Sequence record: OK331996.1
From: Escherichia phage vB_EcoM-G157lw
Strand: one strand, 5' to 3'
Length of the DNA stretch: 64,000 nt
Both the position numbers and the translations under genes were made by a program. Within the stretch, counting starts at the first letter, position 1, and each line of letters opens with the position of its first letter. Shown here one piece after another: positions 1 to 40,437 of the stretch. Under the pieces are notes generated by a model, which made no database searches, was not told the DNA's origin, and saw only the letters and a program-made list of their open reading frames with translations.

Positions 1-162
1 AGCATTATAAGTTTTCCAGGCACCAGCTGAATATGGAACATCACCGTCACCAAGCTCGTAATAAAGCTCATCAAAGTTTTCATTTATTTTTATACCACCT
101 TTACGCAGGTAGTCACCGGTACCATCATCTACAACATTACCGATATTAATATTTTGTTTCAT
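1..162 (-). CDS. 10: baseplate wedge subunit gp10, N-terminal 54 codons (gene continues past window start)
   Basis: ATG at 162-160 overlaps gp9 stop (TAATG); reads MKQNINIGNVVDDGTGDYLRKGG...; T4 order 9-10. Confidence 0.7.
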   Translation of the reverse strand, partial: MKQNINIGNVVDDGTGDYLRKGGIKINENFDELYYELGDGDVPYSAGAWKTYNA

Positions 163-1028
163 TATTGAGCCACCCCGATTTTCTGCGTAGCGATAACTTT
201 AACTGCTGCTCTCATACCGACAGTTGAAGAACTTATAGTCGCCGTTACATAATTTTCTTTAATACTAAATGCAATATTAGCGATTTCGTCTTCTTCGGTT
301 TCATTCCCAACTCGCATGACAGCATATTCAGAAGAAATGACCTCTGAATTAACAATATCCACAAGAATATTTATTTCTGCTGTTTTAATTTTTCTTCCAT
401 CTGCTGACTGGCATGTAACTAACAATTTAGCCATGTTATATTCAGTGCGATGAAACAATGGAATGTCAACTGATCCAGATGTAGAAATATTCCACGTACC
501 TTCAACTGGTGATTCCTTTTGACCAAACATGCTTTCAATAGAATAATTCCAAACCGACGTAGAATTATCAGATGAAATACAGCGTAAAGTAACTTTACTA
601 TATGGAGTAGTTACTACCAAATTACCTGAAACACCTTTAATTGAATCAATAGCCTGAATCGTTAAAGGATTAGTAACTGATATTGATCCATTAGAATTAA
701 TGAATTCAACACAATCGCCAAGTTCTCCTCTTTCAATGATAACTTTAACACCTACAGTAGAGGTATCAATATCATGTCTAGTGCCAACTTTTACTGGAGT
801 TGCATACTCAGCAATAGAGTGTTTTTGATAATATCCAGTAGCATGGATAATTTGACCATCAGCTCCGGTGCCATTTGCTACTGCCATTTTACGCTGATCG
901 CCAAACGCATTATAAATTGCGTTAAAATCACTATTAATTTTATTACCACCGTCGAATAAGATATCACCAGTAGAAGCGTTACCAATTTCGCCGGTATCAA
1001 TCAATTTCTTTGGTTCTTGAATGAACAT
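162..1028 (-). CDS. 9: baseplate wedge / long tail fiber connector gp9
   Basis: 288 aa, MFIQEPKKLIDTGEIGN... matches T4 gp9 size and synteny. Confidence 0.9.
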   Translation of the reverse strand: MFIQEPKKLIDTGEIGNASTGDILFDGGNKINSDFNAIYNAFGDQRKMAVANGTGADGQIIHATGYYQKHSIAEYATPVKVGTRHDIDTSTVGVKVIIERGELGDCVEFINSNGSISVTNPLTIQAIDSIKGVSGNLVVTTPYSKVTLRCISSDNSTSVWNYSIESMFGQKESPVEGTWNISTSGSVDIPLFHRTEYNMAKLLVTCQSADGRKIKTAEINILVDIVNSEVISSEYAVMRVGNETEEDEIANIAFSIKENYVTATISSSTVGMRAAVKVIATQKIGVAQ

Positions 1029-1052
1029 AGCGGTTTCCTTATGAGTTTATAG

Positions 1053-1060
1053 TATTTATA
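1053..1060 (-). promoter_or_regulatory. T4-type late promoter TATAAATA (minus strand) upstream of gene 9
   Basis: plus-strand TATTTATA about 25 nt upstream of gp9 ATG. Confidence 0.6.
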
Positions 1061-1087
1061 AAGAAAAAGGGAGCCCATGGGCTCCCT
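1060..1087 (-). terminator. palindromic GC hairpin with T-run after gene 8
   Basis: GGGAGCCCATGGGCTCCC followed on minus strand by CTTTTTCTTT. Confidence 0.5.
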
Positions 1088-1091
1088 TAAT

Positions 1092-2096
1092 TTAAAATGT
1101 AAACAGAATATTGATTTCTTCTGTTTGATCCATTGCCATAATAATAGGTGGCCTATTTTCCATATAAATCATTTCACCCGAATGCCTCATTAAATCTTCT
1201 GGGTCATAATAATCCTTTTCAGCTTTAACGTTTGGGTCATTTGGATGAGCTTTAGCTTCAAGAGGATTCGTAATTATTGATATTTGTCTAAATCCTTTAT
1301 TTCCCGGCAATGCAGCTTCAGGAAAATAAACTGAATCTAAATATGCTTTAAAACGGATAGTATTTGCCTTAACACGGTAAATTAATCCAAAATCATCTTG
1401 TTGCCAAGTGAGATTATCTTCATACCCCCATCTAGTCGGGTCTTCTTTTAATTCCTCAGGCCAAGGAACCACGATATATTCATTCGTGCATCTATTTATA
1501 GATACATCAGGCGGAATCTCAAAAAGATATTCCCACACATACCCGTCTCCGGGTTCAATTGTTCCTTCAGCATCTCCTCGGCCTTCAGGCGGAGTCATTG
1601 ACCTAACAGAAGGTGTCCATTTTCCACCTAATTTGAGGCATTCATCCTTATCAGTTAAAGATGTTATTGAACACATTCCAGTATCAGGAACATCTAAACA
1701 ACGATATACTAACCAGCCTGCGCCTGATTCAGTAGCATTGTAAGGAGCTGAGTTACACACTACAATATCGTTAATTCTAAATGTGTATGGATCCGGATAT
1801 CTAGTATCTCCCCAATCTCGACGAGGAATAACAGCATCAAGCATTGATGGAAGAACCTTTACTGTTCCCATCATATGCGTCCACATGTCAGTTACGCCTA
1901 ATACAGAATCAGTTGGATAAGGTGGGGCAAAGCCCACCTCATTTTCATTTGATGACCACGGTTCTGATCTTCCAAATGTGATAAAGATAGTGTTTTTATC
2001 CGGACCACTTCCAATTGAATTATAAAAATTCAACATTTTTTCTGTTCTAAATTTTGAAGTAACTATCGCACGATAGATAACACTTGAATCATTCAT
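1092..2096 (-). CDS. 8: baseplate wedge subunit gp8
   Basis: 334 aa, size and position as T4 gp8. Confidence 0.9.
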   Translation of the reverse strand: MNDSSVIYRAIVTSKFRTEKMLNFYNSIGSGPDKNTIFITFGRSEPWSSNENEVGFAPPYPTDSVLGVTDMWTHMMGTVKVLPSMLDAVIPRRDWGDTRYPDPYTFRINDIVVCNSAPYNATESGAGWLVYRCLDVPDTGMCSITSLTDKDECLKLGGKWTPSVRSMTPPEGRGDAEGTIEPGDGYVWEYLFEIPPDVSINRCTNEYIVVPWPEELKEDPTRWGYEDNLTWQQDDFGLIYRVKANTIRFKAYLDSVYFPEAALPGNKGFRQISIITNPLEAKAHPNDPNVKAEKDYYDPEDLMRHSGEMIYMENRPPIIMAMDQTEEINILFTF

Positions 2097-5000
2097 CTAT
2101 TTTAACCTGTGTTGGATTTTCAGGGTCTCTTGGATTTCCTATATTATCTTTTAGACGTTTATTAACTAAATCTCTAAATTGCGCAAATGTTGTTCCAGAT
2201 GCATCAAATAAAGGACTCATTAATTTACGTCGTTCAGACGGCAATTGACCTTGAAATATTGAATTATTATTTTCAGCATTATAGTCATCAGGAAGAGGAT
2301 ATTCTACACCAGCCATTGGGCCAGGCTCATAAATTGCTTCGCCTGTTACTGAATCATGCTCAATTTCACCGGTTGGAGTTAATTTAGCTACTCTATCAGC
2401 ATATTCAGTAGGCAATCCAGAATCCCATTTATAGTTTTTGTATTTATTAATTATAGTCTCTGTGTGTTTAAGAGTTAAACCAACATTAATAAACATCGTT
2501 AAAAGGGTAATTGCTATAAATCCAAATCCTACTGGATGAACAAAACGAATAACGTCAGATTTCCAACGGGAAGAAGGTAAATTGGATTTAATTTTCATTA
2601 CATAGTATGATCTACTTCTATTAATATAGTCTATATTGTTTTGAAGCAAATCCTTTCCTTTAACCCCACGAATAATTTCGCCTTCAAAACCAGGGAGTCT
2701 TTCTGCTTTAACTTCTTGACCAGCAATTAATCGTCCTAAAAGATTATGAATAGTTACGGTCCATTGCAATTTACCATTAGAATAGCTTCTTTCTATATAA
2801 GTAACATTACATCTTCCTGTTGCCGTATAAATCGTTTGTCCTACTAAATCTTCAGTCAAAGAATCAGATTGAACGATTATGTCATATTCAGTACCGGCCC
2901 CAGATTCAATTTCAATTTCAACTTCTTCATTATAAAGAACTTTAAAAAGAAACTTGTATGATGCTTCAATTCCTTTAGTAGAATAAAAATCATAGCTACG
3001 TGATTCAAAGAATCTCGCAACAGCATCACGTTTATCAGCATTTAAATAAATGTTTCTTTTATATATCTCTGACCACAAATATTCCCACGCATGCTCTTCT
3101 CGTGGATATTGGTTACGAATTAAATTTCGTAAATTGTTATACTGAGTTCCATATCCGTCAGAAAGATATTGAATATATGCTTCACAAAATGCCTCAAAAT
3201 TAGAATCTTGTAACAAGTAAGAATCAGGCATCATTGTGCCAATCAATGGTCTTAAATCAGGGTCAGCTAATCCACGTTCTTCTTCTGGTGACCAAGGAGT
3301 TTCGCGCTCTTGGTTTTGTAAAAATGCTTTTAAAAATACTTCAGTTGGCTTCCAAATAATTTCTACTGTATCTCTCACACGATAGTTAAAATCATAATAA
3401 GAAATTATTTCGCCAGAAGATTTGTAGAAAAGCATTCCTGATGCGTATTTTTTAAATCCGGTGAATTTAACATTTGGCATTACTATCGTGCAATCACCAT
3501 CATCCCAGTATTCATGAACTAATCTATCTGGTGATGTTTCTGGAATATTTTCTATAACTTTAGTGTATTTTAAATCAGCATAAACTACTACAGCTCTATC
3601 AGAGTTGTTTATCCAACATCGTGTGTTAGATTTTTTAGACCAGTTAAAGAACGGTTCTGCGTAGTATTTCATTGGTTGAGGAGTAAAAGTCTCCCAATCA
3701 GATTTTTCATCCGCTATAAATGCCATCATATGATAATGCTTATCAGCTAACCATTCACGAGGAAATTCATATTTAACAGCACCGATTAACTGATATTTCA
3801 CCACAGTTTCAGGGTCATTAACAATGTTATCACTTAAAAATTTAAAATTACTCGAAGATAGAGAAACTAATTTACCGTCAGTTGACATATTCGCATATCC
3901 GGGTTGAATACGTCTTCTTTCTTCTTCGGTATTACCGAAAACTCTTTTCCACGTTTTCGTATCATGGTTTAAAACATATATTCCTTTATCAGCAGAATCA
4001 ATTATTTTTGATGTTCTAGGATTGGCATTTAATGTTTCAACTTCACCAATAATAAGAGCAAAAACTTTATCACCAACAGAATCCATTTTATAGCATACTG
4101 CTTTAGGATTTCCGGTTATAGTCATGGTATCAGGTTCAAAAAGTCTTTCCGAATATGTTGGAGATAATGGATCAGAATCTATAGGTGCATTACTCGTTTT
4201 TATGTATCTAACTTTGTCTCTGGCGACAACGTAAATGTAATCATCGGTGCAAGTAATAGCTTCTGCAATGCGGTATACATTCGCTGGTAAAGTCGCATAA
4301 GTGGCAAAAATTTCTACATCAAATCCTAAATGTAATTGGTCGCCAAGTTTAGCGAATGTTATATCCTGTGAACTGAATCTGACATCATCAGCTGACCATC
4401 TAACATCAGTAGATTTGCGGCCATAGAAAATCTTGTCGTATCCTAGAACGTATGTAGTGTTCGCAGATTGGTAATATACTGTCTTAGATAAAGGATATCC
4501 TACACGGTCATTGAAGAGCTTTACAGCTTTCCAGGTTTGTCCTTTATCATTAGATACTTTAACCACGGGTTGATAACGCTCAAAAAGATATAGAATCCCT
4601 TCTGATTCCATCAAATAAACTCGGTTAATATCCTTACATACTTGCTGAATGGAACCTTGTATTTCATGATACTCATTTTCACCAATAATAAAATTACTGA
4701 TTGATGAAACATCAACATATGATGGGCTGAATTGGAACGATTCATTCATCAATGCAGCCATTATAGTGTCATTATTAAAATTGACATAATTAGAATTGTT
4801 AAGAGTAAACTTTTCCTGAATGAATTTATTGGCTAATTGCATTTCAATCATGTTTTGAAATGTGTAAGCATTCGTAGCAAAAGTTTCAAACTCTTCAGTA
4901 TAAATCCAATCAGACTGCTCAAAATCCTGCGCAGCTGTAGCTACTCTAATAATGTACGATGTTAATGGATTAGCATTATCAAAAAAGAAGCTGTTATTTG

Positions 5001-15125: not shown

Positions 15126-15198
15126 TGGGAATTAGCCAAGTTGGTAAGGCACTGGATTTTGATTCCAGGATGCAAAGGTTCGAGTCCTTTATTCCCAG
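15126..15198 (+). tRNA. tRNA-Gln (anticodon UUG)
   Basis: manual cloverleaf: acceptor TGGGAAT/ATTCCCA, anticodon loop TTTTGAT, T-loop GGTTCGAGTCC. Confidence 0.8.
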
Positions 15199-15199
15199 C

Positions 15200-15286
15200 G
15201 CGAGAATGGTCAAATTGGTAAAGGCACAGCACTTAAAATGCTGCGGAATGATTTCCTTGTGGGTTCGAGTCCCACTTCTCGCACCA
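15200..15286 (+). tRNA. tRNA-Leu (anticodon UAA), class II
   Basis: acceptor GCGAGAA/TTCTCGC, loop CTTAAAA, long variable arm, encoded CCA. Confidence 0.8.
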
Positions 15287-15291
15287 AATTT

Positions 15292-15365
<74 letters not shown>

Positions 15366-15375
15366 ATTTAATTTA

Positions 15376-15449
15376 CTCCGTGTAGCTCAGTTTGGTAGAG
15401 CGCCTGATTTGGGATCAGGAGGTCCAAGGTTCAAATCCTTGTATGGAGA
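15376..15449 (+). tRNA. tRNA-Pro (anticodon UGG)
   Basis: anticodon stem CCTGA/TCAGG, loop TTTGGGA, T-loop GGTTCAAATCC. Confidence 0.75.
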
Positions 15450-15451
15450 CT

Positions 15452-15541
15452 GGAGGCGTGGCAGAGTGGTTTAATGCACCGGTCTTGAAAACCGGCAGTC
15501 GCTCCGGCGACTCATAGGTTCAAATCCTATCGCCTCCGCCA
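15452..15541 (+). tRNA. tRNA-Ser (anticodon UGA), class II
   Basis: acceptor GGAGGCG/CGCCTCC, loop CTTGAAA, long variable arm, CCA. Confidence 0.8.
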
Positions 15542-15546
15542 GTTTT

Positions 15547-15622
15547 GCTGATTTAGCTCAGTAGGTAGAGCAACTCACTTGTAATGAGAAGGTCGGCGGT
15601 TCGATTCCGTCAATCAGCACCA
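15547..15622 (+). tRNA. tRNA-Thr (anticodon UGU)
   Basis: acceptor GCTGATT/AATCAGC, loop CTTGTAA, CCA. Confidence 0.8.
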
Positions 15623-15623
15623 A

Positions 15624-15698
15624 GGCCCTGTAGCTGGAAGGTTCAAGCAAGCGACTCATAATCGCCAGATGGTGGTTCAATTCCACCCAGGGCCACCA
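15624..15698 (+). tRNA. tRNA with CAU anticodon (Ile2 lysidine-type, or Met)
   Basis: acceptor GGCCCTG/CAGGGCC, loop CTCATAA, CCA; T4 tRNA-Ile position. Confidence 0.75.
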
Positions 15699-15710
15699 AA
15701 TTATGAATTA

Positions 15711-15797
15711 GGGGAGTTATCCCGTAGAGGTAGCGGTGTGGACTGTAAATCCATTGTCATTGCGACTCGGGTGGTTCGACTCCATCACTCCCCACCA
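15711..15797 (+). tRNA. tRNA-Tyr (anticodon GUA), class II
   Basis: acceptor GGGGAGT/ACTCCCC, loop CTGTAAA, long variable arm, CCA. Confidence 0.75.
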
Positions 15798-15801
15798 ATT
15801 T

Positions 15802-15876
15802 GGATGTGTAGCTCAATGGCAGAGCGATCGCCTGTTAAGCGATTGGTTATAGGTTCGAATCCTATCACGTCCGCCA
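15802..15876 (+). tRNA. tRNA-Asn (anticodon GUU)
   Basis: anticodon stem ATCGC/GCGAT, loop CTGTTAA, T-loop GGTTCGAATCC, CCA. Confidence 0.75.
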
Positions 15877-15990
15877 AATTTGTGACAGTTGTCACATTAA
15901 TATCTACTTGACGCGATTATCGGGGTTGAACTGATCACTCTTCTCTTAATTTCGTGTGAAGACATCTTGATTGTTGGAGTAGGTATTAAT

Positions 15991-16066
15991 GTGGCCGTAG
16001 TTCAGTTGGTAGAACTCGAGATTGTGATTCTCGTAGTCATGGGTTCGACTCCCATCGGTCACCCCA
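15991..16066 (+). tRNA. tRNA-His (anticodon GUG)
   Basis: anticodon stem CGAGA/TCTCG, loop TTGTGAT, T-loop GGTTCGACTCC, CCA. Confidence 0.75.
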
Positions 16067-16070
16067 ATTA

Positions 16071-16146
16071 CGGGGCATAGCTCAGAAGGAAGAGCAAGGA
16101 CCTTCTAAGTCCTAGGTCGTAGGTTCGATCCCTACTGCCTCGACCA
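16071..16146 (+). tRNA. tRNA-Arg (anticodon UCU)
   Basis: anticodon stem AGGAC/GTCCT, loop CTTCTAA, T-loop GGTTCGATCC, CCA. Confidence 0.8.
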
Positions 16147-27241: not shown

Positions 27242-27823
27242 ATGGCGAGTTTAATTTTTACTTATGCAGCAATGAATGCTGGAAAATCTGCTTCTCTTTT
27301 GACTGCTGCACATAATTATAAAGAACGTGGAATGAGTGTATTAGTTCTTAAGCCTGCTATTGATACTCGCGATTCTGTCTGTGAAGTTGTTTCTCGCATT
27401 GGAATTAAACAGGAAGCGAATATTATTACAGATGATATGGATATTTTCGAGTTCTATAAATGGGCTGAAGCACAAAAAGATATTCATTGCGTATTTGTAG
27501 ATGAAGCTCAGTTTTTAAAAACTGAACAGGTGCACCAATTAAGCCGAATTGTTGATACATATAATGTTCCTGTTATGGCTTATGGATTAAGGACTGATTT
27601 CGCTGGAAAATTGTTTGAAGGTTCTAAAGAACTTTTAGCGATTGCAGATAAACTTATTGAACTAAAGGCAGTTTGTCATTGCGGCAAAAAAGCGATTATG
27701 ACAGCTCGATTAATGGAAGATGGAACACCAGTTAAAGAAGGTAATCAAATCTGTATTGGTGATGAAATTTATGTTTCTTTGTGCAGAAAACATTGGAATG
27801 AATTAACTAAAAAGCTTGGTTAG
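27242..27823 (+). CDS. tk: thymidine kinase
   Basis: 193 aa, P-loop AMNAGKS, MASLIFTYAAM... matches T4 tk. Confidence 0.9.
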   Translation: MASLIFTYAAMNAGKSASLLTAAHNYKERGMSVLVLKPAIDTRDSVCEVVSRIGIKQEANIITDDMDIFEFYKWAEAQKDIHCVFVDEAQFLKTEQVHQLSRIVDTYNVPVMAYGLRTDFAGKLFEGSKELLAIADKLIELKAVCHCGKKAIMTARLMEDGTPVKEGNQICIGDEIYVSLCRKHWNELTKKLG

Positions 27824-29780: not shown

Positions 29781-30338
29781 GTGGGTGAGTCGAAGAGAAT
29801 CAATATGAAACGATTAGTATTAGAAGTTAGTCCGCTTTTTGGTGAATTAGCTATAGAAAAAGTAAATAATATGTATCGTTTGACACAAGAAGACGATATG
29901 CTATATTTTACGCCTAGTGAAATCATTCATTTAACCCAAATTGAATATCCTTATACTGATAAAATAGTAAGCATCAATGATGAGCACAAAATTCATTTTT
30001 ATTCTTCATGCCCAGGATTTAATATTAAAAGTGAGTCAATGTGTTTATCAGTTATCCATTGGGATAGTTTTATAGATAAGATTAAATATTTTTATTATTC
30101 TAATGAAAGAAAACATAGTTTAAAATGGCTCAAAAATTGCAATGCTATTATTACTAACGCTTGCAATCAGAATGATGAAACTGTTTTAAACGTATCAAAA
30201 TGCTATGAAGATGGTGATGTCTTAACTATTCGTCAAATTGATGATTTTCGATCGTATATTGTCACATTTACCAAAGACGAAGCTATTGCGCTAAAGACTT
30301 ATCTCGATTCTGTCATTCCAACTATGATTTCAAAGTGA
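29781..30338 (+). CDS. hypothetical protein, paralog pair member 1
   Basis: 185 aa; GTG start after AAGGAG (alt ATG 29805); C-terminus DEAIALKTYLDSVIPTM. Confidence 0.55.
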   Translation: MGESKRINMKRLVLEVSPLFGELAIEKVNNMYRLTQEDDMLYFTPSEIIHLTQIEYPYTDKIVSINDEHKIHFYSSCPGFNIKSESMCLSVIHWDSFIDKIKYFYYSNERKHSLKWLKNCNAIITNACNQNDETVLNVSKCYEDGDVLTIRQIDDFRSYIVTFTKDEAIALKTYLDSVIPTMISK

Positions 30339-30344
30339 GGAAAT

Positions 30345-30866
30345 ATGTTTATTTCAAGTGGAAGTGGTTTAATTCGTGTTGAATTTAAAAATGACATCTT
30401 CCTTATTCAAGGAGATGATATTATTAAAATGAGTTATGATGAAATTAAGAAAATTTGTAATGCTCTTGAAAGTCATGGAAAAGTGAACGCTGTTATTGAT
30501 ATTGGTGATTTATGGGTGACACTTTATGAAGTATCCGAAGGATTTAATATTGAAGATGAAAACAACATCTTAGCTATTGATAAAAGAAGCGATTTGTTTG
30601 ATGTGTTAAAAGTTTATGAACAGTCAAACGGTGGAAGAAAAGCTGTATTGATTTATCAAAAACCACATTCATGTGGAACTGCTTCAATCATTTCAGATAT
30701 TGAAGATGAAACTGATACTTATATGTGTGTTTTAAAAGCTGGTGGTGACCGTCATCCGGATTTTATTTCTATTCGTCAAAACAATGGAGAAATTTCATTA
30801 TCAAAATCAGAAGCTGAAGCTATGATTAAGTATTTAACAACTGTTACACCTTCAATGAAAGGATAA
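30345..30866 (+). CDS. hypothetical protein, paralog pair member 2
   Basis: 173 aa; C-terminus SEAEAMIKYLTTVTPSM similar to upstream gene. Confidence 0.6.
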   Translation: MFISSGSGLIRVEFKNDIFLIQGDDIIKMSYDEIKKICNALESHGKVNAVIDIGDLWVTLYEVSEGFNIEDENNILAIDKRSDLFDVLKVYEQSNGGRKAVLIYQKPHSCGTASIISDIEDETDTYMCVLKAGGDRHPDFISIRQNNGEISLSKSEAEAMIKYLTTVTPSMKG

Positions 30867-30868
30867 TT

Positions 30869-31330
30869 ATGATTATTAATGAAAACTCTTGGCACTATAA
30901 ATTATTCAAACTGTTTAACGACGAATGGAAACGACCTAAGACACTGTGTGCATACTTTTGGTCTATTGTTATCCCTACATTTTTCGTTTCTTTTTTCGGA
31001 TGTACTATACTCGCAGGTCTAACTATTATCTGTGCAGAAATCATACAGAAATGGCTTATTTTTGGTAGTTTATGGACTCTTATTCCATCAGCATTTATAC
31101 TTGCCATTTTGCTTATTTTACTTATTATTGGTTCATTTGTTATTCCTGCACAACTGCATGAAAAATATAAAGATTATAAATGGAAAAAGGATTATGCTTT
31201 ACATGTAGAAAATATTGATAGGGCGTATAAAGGTTTACCTCCTATTCAACCCAAGAAATCTATTATCGTTGAATTTTTAAAAGCTCGTAAAGCTAAAGTA
31301 TGTCCTGTTATTGAATATAAGGCTGAATGA
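30869..31330 (+). CDS. membrane protein
   Basis: 153 aa, three hydrophobic segments. Confidence 0.6.
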   Translation: MIINENSWHYKLFKLFNDEWKRPKTLCAYFWSIVIPTFFVSFFGCTILAGLTIICAEIIQKWLIFGSLWTLIPSAFILAILLILLIIGSFVIPAQLHEKYKDYKWKKDYALHVENIDRAYKGLPPIQPKKSIIVEFLKARKAKVCPVIEYKAE

Positions 31331-32340
31331 TGAAAACAGTAATGAAAAGCTATTTTGGTAGTCATCTTTATGGAACTTCTACCCCAGAATCTGATGTAGA
31401 TTTTAAAGAAATCTTTGTTCCTCCTGCTCGCGATATTCTTATCGGAAATGTCAAAGAGCACATGAGTAAAAACACTAACAACACATCATCTAAAAACACT
31501 AAAGATGATATTGACCATGAACTATACAGTCTTAAATATTTCTTTAAATTAGCAGCAGATGGTGAAACTGTAGCGTTGGATATGCTTCACACTCCACCTG
31601 AACTAGTGGTTAAATCTGATTTGCCTGATGTGTGGAAGTTTATTCAAGACAACCGTTCTCGTTTTTATACGACTAACATGAAATCATATTTAGGATATGT
31701 CCGCAAGCAAGCTTCTAAATACGGTGTCAAGGGTTCTCGTTTGGCTGCATTACGTGATGTATTGAAAGTAGTTAATCAAATCCCTGAGCAATGGGTTGAT
31801 TACCAAGAAGATGGTTCTATTAAGCAGCGTCGTACTAAAGTTGAAGATATTAAGCATCGTCTTCCAGAAAACGAATTCTGTGAATGGGTGTTCCATAATC
31901 ATGAGAAAACAGGCCCACAAACGTTCTACACTGTGTTGGGTCGTAAATATCAGACAACTCTTTCTCTTATTGAGCTTAAGCAGTCACTGAACAAATTAGA
32001 TGCTGAATACGGTGAACGTGCTCGTAAGGCCGAAGCCAACGAAGGCATTGACTGGAAAGCTCTGAGCCATGCTTGTCGTGGTGGACTTCAACTATTGGAA
32101 ATTTACAAAACTGGTGACTTGGTTTATCCACTCCAAGATGCTCCATTTATTCTCGACGTGAAGTTGGGTAAGCATCCATTTAAAACAGTTCAAGAGTTTT
32201 TGGAAGATGTGGTCGATCAAGTAGAAGCAGCATCTATTGAAGCTTCTAAGAACGGTATGCAGCAAAAAGTAGACATGGGTTTCTGGGATGACTTCCTTGA
32301 GAAGGTCTATCTTGAAAACCATCGAAGTTATTATAAATGA
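31327..32340 (+). CDS. Pol-beta-superfamily nucleotidyltransferase-fold protein
   Basis: 337 aa; GSHLYGTSTPESDVDF fits G[SG]-x(9-13)-DhD NTase signature. Confidence 0.6.
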   Translation: MMKTVMKSYFGSHLYGTSTPESDVDFKEIFVPPARDILIGNVKEHMSKNTNNTSSKNTKDDIDHELYSLKYFFKLAADGETVALDMLHTPPELVVKSDLPDVWKFIQDNRSRFYTTNMKSYLGYVRKQASKYGVKGSRLAALRDVLKVVNQIPEQWVDYQEDGSIKQRRTKVEDIKHRLPENEFCEWVFHNHEKTGPQTFYTVLGRKYQTTLSLIELKQSLNKLDAEYGERARKAEANEGIDWKALSHACRGGLQLLEIYKTGDLVYPLQDAPFILDVKLGKHPFKTVQEFLEDVVDQVEAASIEASKNGMQQKVDMGFWDDFLEKVYLENHRSYYK

Positions 32341-32342
32341 TA

Positions 32343-32366
32343 GGGAGCCTTCGGGCTCCCTTTTTT
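32343..32366 (+). terminator. intrinsic terminator, UUCG loop
   Basis: GGGAGCC ttcg GGCTCCC then TTTTTT. Confidence 0.75.
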
Positions 32367-32390
32367 ATTTCAAAAATTTTTCACAAAACG

Positions 32391-32420
32391 GTTTACAAGC
32401 ATAAAGCTTTATGGTACTAT
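32391..32420 (+). promoter_or_regulatory. early promoter with conserved leader (PeSL-like cassette)
   Basis: GTTTAC, TACTAT, conserved ACAACTATCAACTGATAC leader. Confidence 0.55.
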
Positions 32421-32454: not shown

Positions 32455-33423
32455 ATGAAAACTGTAACTATCAATAAGGGTATCTACTTCGGTAAAGAAA
32501 TCTCTGGAACTTTTGAGCTCTTAGGCGAATGGTTCCCGGATAATGCTCCGGTAGATGCACAAGGAGATGGTAAAGTTTTTGTTGAAATTGACGGTAAACG
32601 TCGCGGTGTTTGGGTTTACAAATCAGACATTTCATATGATGGTGTAAAAGTTGAAGAAGTTAAAGAATCGTATGAAGATATGAAAACCCGCATTAATAAA
32701 AGATTTAATGTTATGGGAATGATGACGAATGGTATTATTAACGGAAACATTCGTTCATTAATTATTTCTGGTGCGGCGGGTATTGGTAAAACGTATTCTT
32801 TAGATAAAGCTTTAAATAAAGCAAATGATATTGGATACATTGAATATAAAAGCATTAATGGTAAAATCTCTGGTATTGGTCTTTATGAACAGCTTTGGAA
32901 TAATCGTGAAGAGAATTCTGTCCTTTTGATTGATGATGTGGATGTTTTCTCTGATATGGACATTCTTAATCTTCTGAAAGCTGCTCTGGACACTGGAGAG
33001 ACCCGTAAAGTCTGCTGGAGCACTGCATCTTCTTACTTAGAAGAAAAAGGAATTGAGCGTGAGTTTGAATTTAAAGGAACGATTGTTTTTATCACAAACG
33101 TTGACATTGACCGCGAATTAGACCGTGGTACTAAACTTGCTCCACATTTACAAGCATTAGTGTCCCGCTCAGTTTATTTGGATTTGGGTGTTCACACTAA
33201 TGAAGAAATTATGGTCAGGGTTGAAGATGTTATTCTTTCAACTGACATGATGCAAAAGCGCGGTCTTTCTGATGAAGAAACTTATAAAGCATTATCATGG
33301 ATGAAAGTCAATGTTAATCGTTTACGCAATGTTTCACTGCGTACTGCTCTTTATCTTGCTGACTTTATTATGACCGACAAAAACGGTTGGGAAGAAATCG
33401 CTGAAACGGTATTATTAAAATGA
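32455..33423 (+). CDS. AAA+ family ATPase
   Basis: ATG 32455 (track start is TTG); Walker A GAAGIGKT, Walker B LLIDDVD, sensor-1-like FITN. Confidence 0.65.
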   Translation: MKTVTINKGIYFGKEISGTFELLGEWFPDNAPVDAQGDGKVFVEIDGKRRGVWVYKSDISYDGVKVEEVKESYEDMKTRINKRFNVMGMMTNGIINGNIRSLIISGAAGIGKTYSLDKALNKANDIGYIEYKSINGKISGIGLYEQLWNNREENSVLLIDDVDVFSDMDILNLLKAALDTGETRKVCWSTASSYLEEKGIEREFEFKGTIVFITNVDIDRELDRGTKLAPHLQALVSRSVYLDLGVHTNEEIMVRVEDVILSTDMMQKRGLSDEETYKALSWMKVNVNRLRNVSLRTALYLADFIMTDKNGWEEIAETVLLK

Positions 33424-34138
33424 AAAAATATTTTACTATCTATAAAACTGAAATATTAAATTTAAAGACAGGTATTAAGAAATACTATTATGGTCGACAT
33501 ATAACTAATAACATCAATGATTCGTATGTTGGTAGTGGAAATTATATAGAACGTGTAAAAGTGTCAAATGACCACATATTATCAAAAACGGTTTTAGAAG
33601 TTTTTGATAATTATGATAAAATGGTACAAGCTGAAATATTATATATCATGGCAGGTAAATTGAAATATGGAAAAACTGTGTTAACCTGTCATACGGGGGT
33701 GAAGGAGGAAAGGTTGCAGATGAAACTAGGATAAAATGCAAAAAGCATTCTATAAATTTATGGAAAAATCCTAATCATATACAGCATATGAAGAAAAAGA
33801 TGAAAGAGGTCACATCCACGCCGGAAGCTAAATTAAACACTTCAATAAAAACTTCGCAACGATATAAGGACCCAGTTTTTGTTAGAAAAGTTAGTAATAT
33901 TATTAAAAAGAAACTAAACAATCCTGCAGTAAAAGAAAAGCATATTAATGGAATTAAAGCTGCAAAGCGTTCTCATTTAACTATATGGCAGTATGAAGAT
34001 GAATTATTCGAGCTTTGGAAAGAAACTAAATATGGATGGAGAAAATTTACAAAGGAAGCTATAAAACACGGATATCCAAATGAACCGTATCGTAGTATGG
34101 TATCAACTTTTCAGAAAAGACATTTAGAAGAATCCTAA
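33420..34138 (+). pseudogene. GIY-YIG (seg-like) homing endonuclease interrupted by a frameshift
   Basis: ORF 33420-33734 has GIY-YIG-like N-terminus; downstream frame stays open back to about 33683 and overlaps it; shift near G-run 33694-33698. Confidence 0.45.
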
Positions 34139-40173: not shown

Positions 40174-40437
40174 ATGTTTAAAGTATATGGTTATGATAGC
40201 AACATTCATAAATGTGTGTATTGCGATAATGCAAAACGTCTTTTGACCGTGAAGAAACAGCCGTTTGAATTTATTAACATTATGCCGGAAAAAGGTGTTT
40301 TTGATGATGAGAAAATCGCTGAGCTTCTGACTAAACTAGGTCGTGATACTCAAATTGGATTGACAATGCCGCAGGTATTCGCTCCAGATGGAAGTCATAT
40401 TGGTGGATTTGACCAATTGCGGGAATACTTTAAATGA
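40174..40437 (+). CDS. nrdC: phage thioredoxin/glutaredoxin NrdC
   Basis: 87 aa MFKVYGYDSNIHKCVYCDNAKRLL..., CVYC active site. Confidence 0.9.
   Translation: MFKVYGYDSNIHKCVYCDNAKRLLTVKKQPFEFINIMPEKGVFDDEKIAELLTKLGRDTQIGLTMPQVFAPDGSHIGGFDQLREYFK

Follow-up and report, generated by a model that had tools for sequence, protein, structure and literature searches.

A stretch of 64,000 nucleotides from Escherichia phage vB_EcoM-G157lw (sequence record OK331996.1), referred to here as the window, contains an open reading frame (ORF) that encodes 337 residues at 31327–32340 on the plus strand, whose product belongs to the RlaP family of nucleotidyltransferases (NTases). Judged by sequence identity, the window is Tequatrovirus DNA and the ORF is the T-even phage gene nrdC.11. 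The 24 kb around it are 95–97% identical to phage RB14 and other T-even phages, and in the RB14 annotation the gene is called nrdC.11 and the next one nrdC.10. The window's gene shares 97.9% nucleotide identity with that of RB14, and the protein is 100% identical to a protein of phage UFV-AREG1 and 97.9% identical to T4 NrdC.11. A megablast search matched 688 phage records, in which the gene is annotated as nrdC.11 or as a nucleotidyltransferase. When annotated RB14 genes were mapped onto the window, tk fell at 27242–27823 and nrdC at 40174–40437, and nrdC.11 therefore lies within the tk–nrdC interval. Both the gene's identity and its family were already known, as it is an annotated gene with a published hypothesis for its role in T4. 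The gene and its parts, all on the plus strand, are as follows.

31327–32340, plus strand: nrdC.11 coding sequence, stop codon included (ORF listing; identity to RB14 and T4; PF10127; phrog_388).
31327–31728, plus strand: predicted NTase core and first helices, residues 1–134, the part alignable to Pfam and canonical RlaP (Pfam, residues 7–135; hhalign, residues 6–131; model).
31357–31401, plus strand: NTase signature, residues 11–25 (G11 S12 ... S22 D23 x D25), with the putative helix-capping GS and the first two putative metal-binding Asp residues (conservation; model).
31513–31515, plus strand: D63, probable third catalytic carboxylate, at the start of strand 62–68 (invariance; hhalign to D72 of canonical RlaP).
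31729–32034, plus strand: clade-specific insertion, residues ~135–236, two long helices carrying a small beta module (residues 155–209).
32035–32337, plus strand: predicted C-terminal helical domain, residues 237–337, with the invariant DWKAxSHAxR (nucleotides 32056–32079), P268 and K279 (invariant columns; alignment; model).

The ORF listing confirms the gene, and the signature GSHLYGTSTPESDVDF occupies residues 11–26, in agreement with an earlier note, made from the sequence alone, that had reported a 337-residue protein with an NTase signature near its N terminus. Two neighbouring ATG codons could start translation. The first, at 31327, overlaps as ATGA the stop codon of a small predicted membrane-protein gene upstream; the second, at 31330, is better spaced from an AAGG Shine–Dalgarno-like site, and it is here that the RefSeq annotation of RB14 begins the gene (1011 nt). 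NrdC.11 is therefore 337 residues long if read from 31327 and 336 if read from 31330.

Family membership follows from profile searches. PF10127 ("RlaP, RNA repair pathway DNA polymerase beta family") matches residues 7–135 with 43.7 bits (E = 3.5e-11), the curated gathering cut-off being 23 bits, and PHROG 388 ("nucleotidyltransferase") matches at E = 7e-137. PF10127 also matched 41 of 41 diverse clade members tested. NCBIfam gave no match for nrdC.11 or nrdC.10. The motif on which an NTase had originally been proposed is present, and no second copy turned up in the window's 81 ORFs of 100 or more residues, but in its loose form, G[SG]-x(9-13)-D-x-D, it also appears in 4.8% of shuffled NrdC.11 sequences and is weak when taken alone; it is significant because of the PF10127 profile match and the near-invariant GSxLYG..SDxD around it. 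We conclude that NrdC.11 is a long-form member of the RlaP family (PF10127) within the Pol-beta superfamily of nucleotidyltransferases. The earlier assignment to a phage-encoded Pol-beta-type enzyme is thus upheld by the profile match and by the structural neighbours described below. The accompanying label of unknown function needs qualification, since the protein passes the Pfam RlaP threshold and has a published family assignment (PMC1524935; bioRxiv 10.64898/2025.12.29.696909). In GenBank phage records, nrdC.11 orthologues are very often mislabelled "thioredoxin", a name apparently propagated from the nrdC locus, and one carries the label "putative HNH homing endonuclease".

We searched 1.84 billion cluster representatives exhaustively with HMMER and obtained 3420 relatives at E ≤ 1e-3, of which 830 reach E ≤ 1e-30; almost all of the relatives align over the whole length. 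Therefore, the C-terminal two-thirds of NrdC.11 is a conserved part of the protein and not an undefined tail. GSxLYG..SDxD is present in almost all of about 150 cluster representatives at 36–58% identity. In an alignment of NrdC.11 with 40 relatives at 33–54% identity (41 sequences), the invariant residues are G11, S12, G16, S22, D23, D25, N57, D63, G79 and Y132 and, further downstream, R231, K244, H248, R251, P268 and K279; D61, D85, D242 and W243 are nearly invariant. An AlphaFold2 model built from this alignment (predicted local distance difference test, pLDDT, 92.9; predicted template modelling score 0.77) has an alpha/beta NTase core from residue 1 to about 97, helices to about residue 151 (including 100–133), a beta-rich module at residues 155–209 and then an all-helical C-terminal region. 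In the model, D23 and D25 stand at the start of strand 24–31 and D63 starts the neighbouring strand; in a profile–profile alignment (hhalign), D63 pairs with the invariant D72 (LDxNGW) of canonical RlaP. Sequence and model together thus indicate the Pol-beta catalytic set (G-S, D-x-D and a third Asp on a neighbouring strand), and the catalytic acidic triad is most likely D23, D25 and D63. Structure prediction and a fold search, suggested earlier as a check, accordingly gave a predicted NTase fold with its acidic triad in place, and not the loss of either.

Foldseek searches of the Protein Data Bank (PDB) with this model gave weak matches only, the best of which were all Pol-beta NTases (KNTase, 3c18, HalB, Tam41, AadA, LinB and MNT), with HalB and KNTase as the nearest solved folds. 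PDB sequence searches with NrdC.11, the clade profile, canonical RlaP and the canonical profile found nothing relevant. The KNTase/ANT(4') aminoglycoside NTases are only 8–11% identical to NrdC.11, act on small molecules and have no genomic or family link to it. The likeness to cGAS, CD-NTases and OAS that had been drawn from the signature did not survive the comparison: no structure of these families was among the top structural matches, and neither a Mab21/OAS-type fold nor a match to the family profile was found. These results bear on the idea that NrdC.11 makes a nucleotide signal or decoy to manipulate host immunity, either an oligodeoxyadenylate like that of HalB or an oligonucleotide, cyclic or linear, of the kind made by CD-NTases and OAS. 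HalB is a near structural neighbour, but it is only 15% identical, is undetectable by sequence with either RlaP profile, and synthesises poly-dA from a tyrosine primer, with an ion-channel effector as its partner in the Hailong defence system (PDB 9dbh/9dbj); at nrdC.11 we found no sign of protein priming or of a HalA partner and do not class the protein with HalB. Moreover, NrdC.11 has no PADLOC match, and the overlapping membrane protein matches no Pfam family, PADLOC model or solved PDB chain and is encoded where T4 has the homing-endonuclease gene mobD. We regard a signalling enzyme of this kind as very improbable.

The relationship between NrdC.11 and canonical RlaP (PF10127; COG3541) becomes clearer when the C-terminal region is considered. 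We compared NrdC.11 with 12 canonical short RlaPs taken from the neighbours of its cellular homologues, and hhalign aligned only residues 6–131 (probability 93%, E = 3.5e-7). Since the spacing within DWKAxSHAxR equals that of the canonical K-x3-Y-A-x-R, we removed residues 135–236 in silico. The alignment then grew from 117 to 148 columns (E = 7.3e-9; probability 93–96% over both runs) and paired K244, H248 and R251 with the canonical K149, Y153 and R156. We therefore consider the NrdC.11 clade to be RlaP with an insertion of ~100 residues. Even after this removal the last ~90 residues, all-helical in the model, stayed unaligned, and residues 214–337 alone gave no meaningful hhalign alignment to canonical RlaP. 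The insertion has no structural neighbour and is thus an orphan fold; it is flanked by dips in pLDDT, which suggests that hinges lie at its borders. The C-terminal part of NrdC.11 would accordingly be the RlaP helical domain with its K-x3-[YH]-A-x-R motif, split by the insertion, and the roughly 250 downstream residues earlier described as lacking any nameable domain are conserved throughout and can probably be named. In summary, NrdC.11 and canonical RlaP have in common the GS...DxD...D set and probably also the RlaP plan, in which an N-terminal NTase and a C-terminal helical domain with the K-x3-[YH]-A-x-R helix enclose a cleft, whereas NrdC.11 differs in forming a separate clade in which only ~135 N-terminal residues align directly.

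Genomic context provides a second line of evidence. We examined 80 cellular loci (bacterial and a few archaeal) that encode NrdC.11 homologues 32–54% identical to the phage protein, called their ORFs, clustered and Pfam-annotated the neighbours, and counted neighbour families by seeded phmmer searches across the loci. An RNA-repair gene was a neighbour in 25 of the 79 cellular loci of the NrdC.11 clade, among them RtcB in 6, Pnkp ligase in 5, Hen1 in 5, Ro60/TROVE in 4 and a canonical RlaP paralogue in 16. Other operon partners were RtcA, T4-type RNA ligase 1, AAA_33 kinases and Metallophos phosphoesterases, and each such RNA-repair neighbour typically occurs at no more than about one copy per genome. 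The clade's cellular homologues are therefore found, like canonical RlaPs, in operons of the RtcB/RtcA, Pnkp/Hen1 and Rnl kinds. This association with RNA-repair genes, typical of RlaPs, is seen at the cellular loci of the clade and not locally in the window or in T4.

Two loci illustrate these arrangements. In Nitrosospira (locus L036), genes for Ro60, RtcB, RtcA, the NrdC.11-like protein, a short RlaP, Hen1, a MoxR ATPase and Pnkp occur together. On a 4-kb contig binned with a Bathyarchaeota metagenome-assembled genome (locus L005, positions 62–3803), a co-directional and tightly packed operon encodes an NrdC.11-like protein, an NT5C-like protein, a T4-type Pnk, a 143-residue protein and an Rnl1-type ligase. 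This Pnk consists of a kinase and a HAD phosphatase and has 37% identity to its T4 counterpart. The contig may come from a virus and not from an archaeon.

A canonical short RlaP paralogue was found near the NrdC.11 homologue in 16 loci, and in 12 of these it is full-length and lies immediately downstream; the one representative scanned matched PF10127 at E = 5e-79. The tandem loci are L006, L016, L032, L033, L036, L051, L053, L055, L060, L071, L072 and L079, and their short proteins have ~252–277 residues. In bacteria, the NrdC.11 type thus often stands beside the short RlaP instead of replacing it, and the tandem arrangement suggests a two-enzyme pair. The canonical RlaP neighbour, the orphan insertion and the proximity of the HalB fold leave room for a different chemistry in the long-form clade. 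The enzyme might build an oligo(deoxy)nucleotide processively or from a protein primer, and this product could act for the phage as a decoy or silence host immunity, for example by holding a Hailong-type DNA-gated channel shut, perhaps together with the overlapping membrane protein; we give this only a slim chance.

Nolan et al. (2006) found a match to the COG3541 nucleotidyltransferase domain in the orthologues of nrdC.11 (PMC1524935). As cited in later papers, Burroughs and Aravind (2016) named PF10127 "RlaP" for its linkage to RNA ligases and had already put forward the idea of nucleotide-replacing repair. The RNA-repair neighbours in the cellular loci indicate that this linkage holds for the NrdC.11 clade itself. 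In jumbo phages, the distribution of RlaP mirrors that of RNA ligases, and RlaP was predicted to put back nucleotides that RloC and similar nucleases take away (Iyer et al. 2021; PMC7824862). By cutting out the wobble nucleotide, RloC could foil the heal-and-seal repair of T4 (Davidov and Kaufmann 2008; PMC2610378). In December 2025, Carruthers, Fatma and Huang demonstrated that two Pseudomonas RlaPs, from P. fluorescens and P. aeruginosa, add 1–2 nucleoside monophosphates (NMPs) to an RNA 3'-OH; the enzymes prefer Mn2+, accept all four nucleoside triphosphates (NTPs) as well as dATP, label neither DNA nor E. coli proteins, and modestly prefer the 3' end of a nicked anticodon loop (bioRxiv 10.64898/2025.12.29.696909). 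According to the same study, the product suits 5'-phosphate ligases such as T4 Rnl1, which needs a 3'-OH and a 5'-phosphate, the crystal structure of PfRlaP shows an N-terminal NTase together with a helical domain and a further helix in the C-terminal part, and T4 NrdC.11 falls in cluster 5 of the family's sequence similarity network, with its function given as unknown.

We consider it rather probable that NrdC.11 adds NMPs without a template to the 3'-OH of broken RNA, refilling gaps in tRNA between the action of Pnk and that of Rnl1. The repair of tRNA by phages has T4 as its classic model: Pnk and Rnl1 of T4 counteract PrrC, and Pnk removes a 2',3'-cyclic or 3'-phosphate and phosphorylates the 5' end. 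In the proposed pathway, Pnk would first heal the ends, leaving a 3'-OH and a 5'-phosphate. D23, D25 and D63 of NrdC.11 would then, with two divalent metals, probably Mn2+, catalyse the untemplated transfer of one or two NMPs from NTPs to the 3'-OH, which would replace tRNA nucleotides removed by RloC-type host anticodon nucleases or by later trimming. Finally, Rnl1 would seal the break, and a full-length tRNA would be regained at least some of the time. This proposal builds on what is established for NrdC.11, namely its family membership, its predicted fold, its conserved catalytic residues and the RNA-repair neighbourhoods of its clade in cellular genomes; RNA 3'-end activity of the T4-type protein, tRNA as its substrate and cooperation with Pnk and Rnl1 would follow by analogy. 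In light of family membership and gene context, the earlier statement that the sequence could not discriminate between a nucleotide signal and the nucleotidylation of a host or phage target was too pessimistic.

Among phages, NrdC.11 homologues occur in 1517 records, mostly of Straboviridae, and are full-length in 1443; homologues of T4 Rnl1 are present in 1854 records and those of Pnk in 2292, while canonical short RlaPs are found in only 86, mainly from jumbo phages. NrdC.11 shares its phage lineage with the T4 pathway, and the genus counts of NrdC.11, Rnl1 and Pnk are almost equal for Escherichia, Klebsiella, Shigella, Aeromonas, Acinetobacter and Enterobacter; the operon of the 4-kb contig, too, joins a homologue to a T4-type Pnk and an Rnl1-type ligase.

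Several observations weigh against the proposed repair role. The matching genus counts fit cooperation, but they largely reflect shared Straboviridae ancestry. In T4, pseT (encoding Pnk) and rnlA (encoding Rnl1) lie at 134–137 kb and nrdC.11 at ~55 kb, so that the genes, some 80 kb apart, are not adjacent in T-even genomes and nrdC.11 has no ligase gene beside it; moreover, the classical pathway needs no nucleotide addition. Of the 78 viral loci, only 8 have a homologue of an RNA ligase (Rnl1), Pnk or a CCA-adding enzyme within 10 kb, and no RNA-repair neighbour was seen in 54 of the 79 cellular loci, many of which are short contigs. HalB, the nearest solved fold, makes poly-dA from a protein primer and does not repair RNA ends. 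With the insertion in place, Pfam and hhalign reach only the N-terminal ~135 residues, which places the clade at some distance from the characterised RlaPs, and the ~100-residue insertion could alter substrate or processivity. The nrdC.11–mobD.3 region can be deleted from T4 (PMC9825161), and this dispensability in the laboratory fits a conditional role and proves nothing. Our literature searches found no experiment on T4 NrdC.11.

Some of these points would also suit an RNA 3'-end NTase that works outside ligase-coupled anticodon repair, rebuilding CCA ends after attack by host toxins or tailing RNA, for example to mark host or phage transcripts. The family's activity is untemplated, acts on any RNA 3'-OH and shows modest substrate preference (bioRxiv 10.64898/2025.12.29.696909), much as class II CCA-adding enzymes extend tRNA 3' ends without a template. 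Such enzymes also occur in phages: two genes upstream of its NrdC.11 homologue, Rheinheimera phage Barba19A encodes a CCA-adding enzyme, and in three jumbo viral contigs CCA-enzyme homologues are ~6 kb away. A search for tRNA genes beside the Barba19A homologue found none. The absence of an adjacent ligase in T-even genomes points the same way. On the other hand, the genes that recur beside the cellular homologues encode ligases and enzymes of end healing (RtcB, Pnkp/Hen1, Rnl1 and Pnk) and not CCA enzymes, and the class II enzymes belong to PF01743, have a different body and tail architecture and are absent among the structural neighbours of NrdC.11. We therefore judge a role of this kind unlikely, though worth keeping in mind.

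The superfamily also includes enzymes that modify proteins or small molecules, such as KNTase/ANT, DrrA, GlnE and the MNT antitoxins, and by that precedent NrdC.11 could, for example, AMPylate a host RNase toxin of the HEPN type and so silence it. However, the characterised RlaPs left E. coli proteins unlabelled (bioRxiv 10.64898/2025.12.29.696909), the gene context of the homologues indicates RNA repair, and no HEPN or other toxin partner gene lies beside nrdC.11, whose neighbours encode a membrane protein and a P-loop NTPase. An MNT antitoxin is a minimal NTase of ~100–150 residues encoded beside its HEPN toxin, whereas NrdC.11 has 337 residues and a large C-terminal region, and MNT was only a weak Foldseek match (E = 0.22). 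We consider a protein or small-molecule target doubtful, and more so than CCA-end rebuilding or tailing.

Since the gene can be deleted under laboratory conditions and the region is rich in mobile endonuclease genes, nrdC.11 might also be seen as a catalytically dead or vestigial passenger of a hypervariable early region. The gene is, however, full-length in 1443 of the 1517 phage records, the residues of its catalytic set and of its C-terminal motif stay unchanged even in relatives only 33% identical, and the clade comprises thousands of clusters, so that we give this view hardly any credence.

The gene does vary among individual records. It is atypical in phage records OL964745.1, PP738787.1, OR896832.1 and MN882349.1. 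A 159.7-kb "T4" record retains only the last 39 nrdC.11 codons, in Klebsiella phage Lychee_ER51 the gene is broken into two parts, each annotated as a nucleotidyltransferase, and in two Escherichia phages only 72% of the NrdC.11 query is covered, again in two pieces. These atypical records may represent deletions or insertions of mobile elements.

The immediate surroundings of nrdC.11 in the window contain the following features.

30869–31330, plus strand: gene for the small predicted membrane protein, its stop overlapping the nrdC.11 start (phrog_944; context only).
32342–32367, plus strand: intrinsic-terminator-like hairpin and T-run directly after the nrdC.11 stop (fold energy).
32392–32420, plus strand: promoter-like site TTTACA-17-TACTAT upstream of nrdC.10 (consensus match only).
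32455–33423, plus strand: nrdC.10, P-loop NTPase gene with its own promoter-like site (phrog_1250; sub-threshold AAA/STAND matches).

The hairpin at 32342–32361 has an 8-bp stem with 6 GC pairs and a UUCG loop (-17.7 kcal/mol, z = -3.7), and the GTTTACA of the promoter-like site resembles the -35 element of T4 early promoters (GTTTAC). The description of the gene as lying in the tk–nrdC interval just before a terminator and promoter thus proved accurate. The overlapping phrog_944 gene is context for nrdC.11 and a candidate partner by position only. PADLOC gave no match for nrdC.10 or for the two tandem paralogues of the y05I-like "putative transcription factor" family (PF24449 and PF24448) that lie directly upstream, at 29781–30866. 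The nrdC.10 protein matches AAA_14, AAA_22 and nSTAND3, all under the Pfam cut-offs, and phrog_1250 is a group of unknown function. In 35 of the 78 viral loci nrdC.10 lies just downstream of nrdC.11, and it is sometimes the more conserved of the two. We considered it as a functional partner; because nrdC.10 is absent from all 80 cellular loci, and because a terminator and a promoter separate the two genes, we treat it as a syntenic neighbour and not as a demonstrated partner.

After nrdC.10 comes a seg-like GIY-YIG homing-endonuclease gene, which is one 720-nt ORF in RB14. In the window it aligns over 719 nt (33420–34138) but is split into two ORFs (33420–33734 and 33788–34138), and is probably a frameshifted pseudogene. 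Eleven tRNA genes (Gln, Leu, Gly, Pro, Ser, Thr, Met, Tyr, Asn, His and Arg; ARAGORN) are clustered at 15126–16146 and, with a putative enzyme of tRNA repair also encoded here, may have a bearing on how tRNA-targeting defences are evaded.

Since 2008 it has been asked whether phages equipped for tRNA repair can withstand RloC, and NrdC.11 is the obvious candidate for the nucleotide-replacing step. This candidate role has been published before, by Burroughs and Aravind (2016), as cited by others, and by Carruthers et al. (2025). Our analysis adds that T-even phages carry a distinct long-form RlaP clade with an inserted orphan module, and that this clade itself, beyond canonical RlaP, is tied to RNA-repair operons, including one with a T4-type Pnk and an Rnl1-type ligase, and to frequent long/short tandem pairs. 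These details sharpen the experiment to be done on NrdC.11 and leave the category of the gene unchanged.

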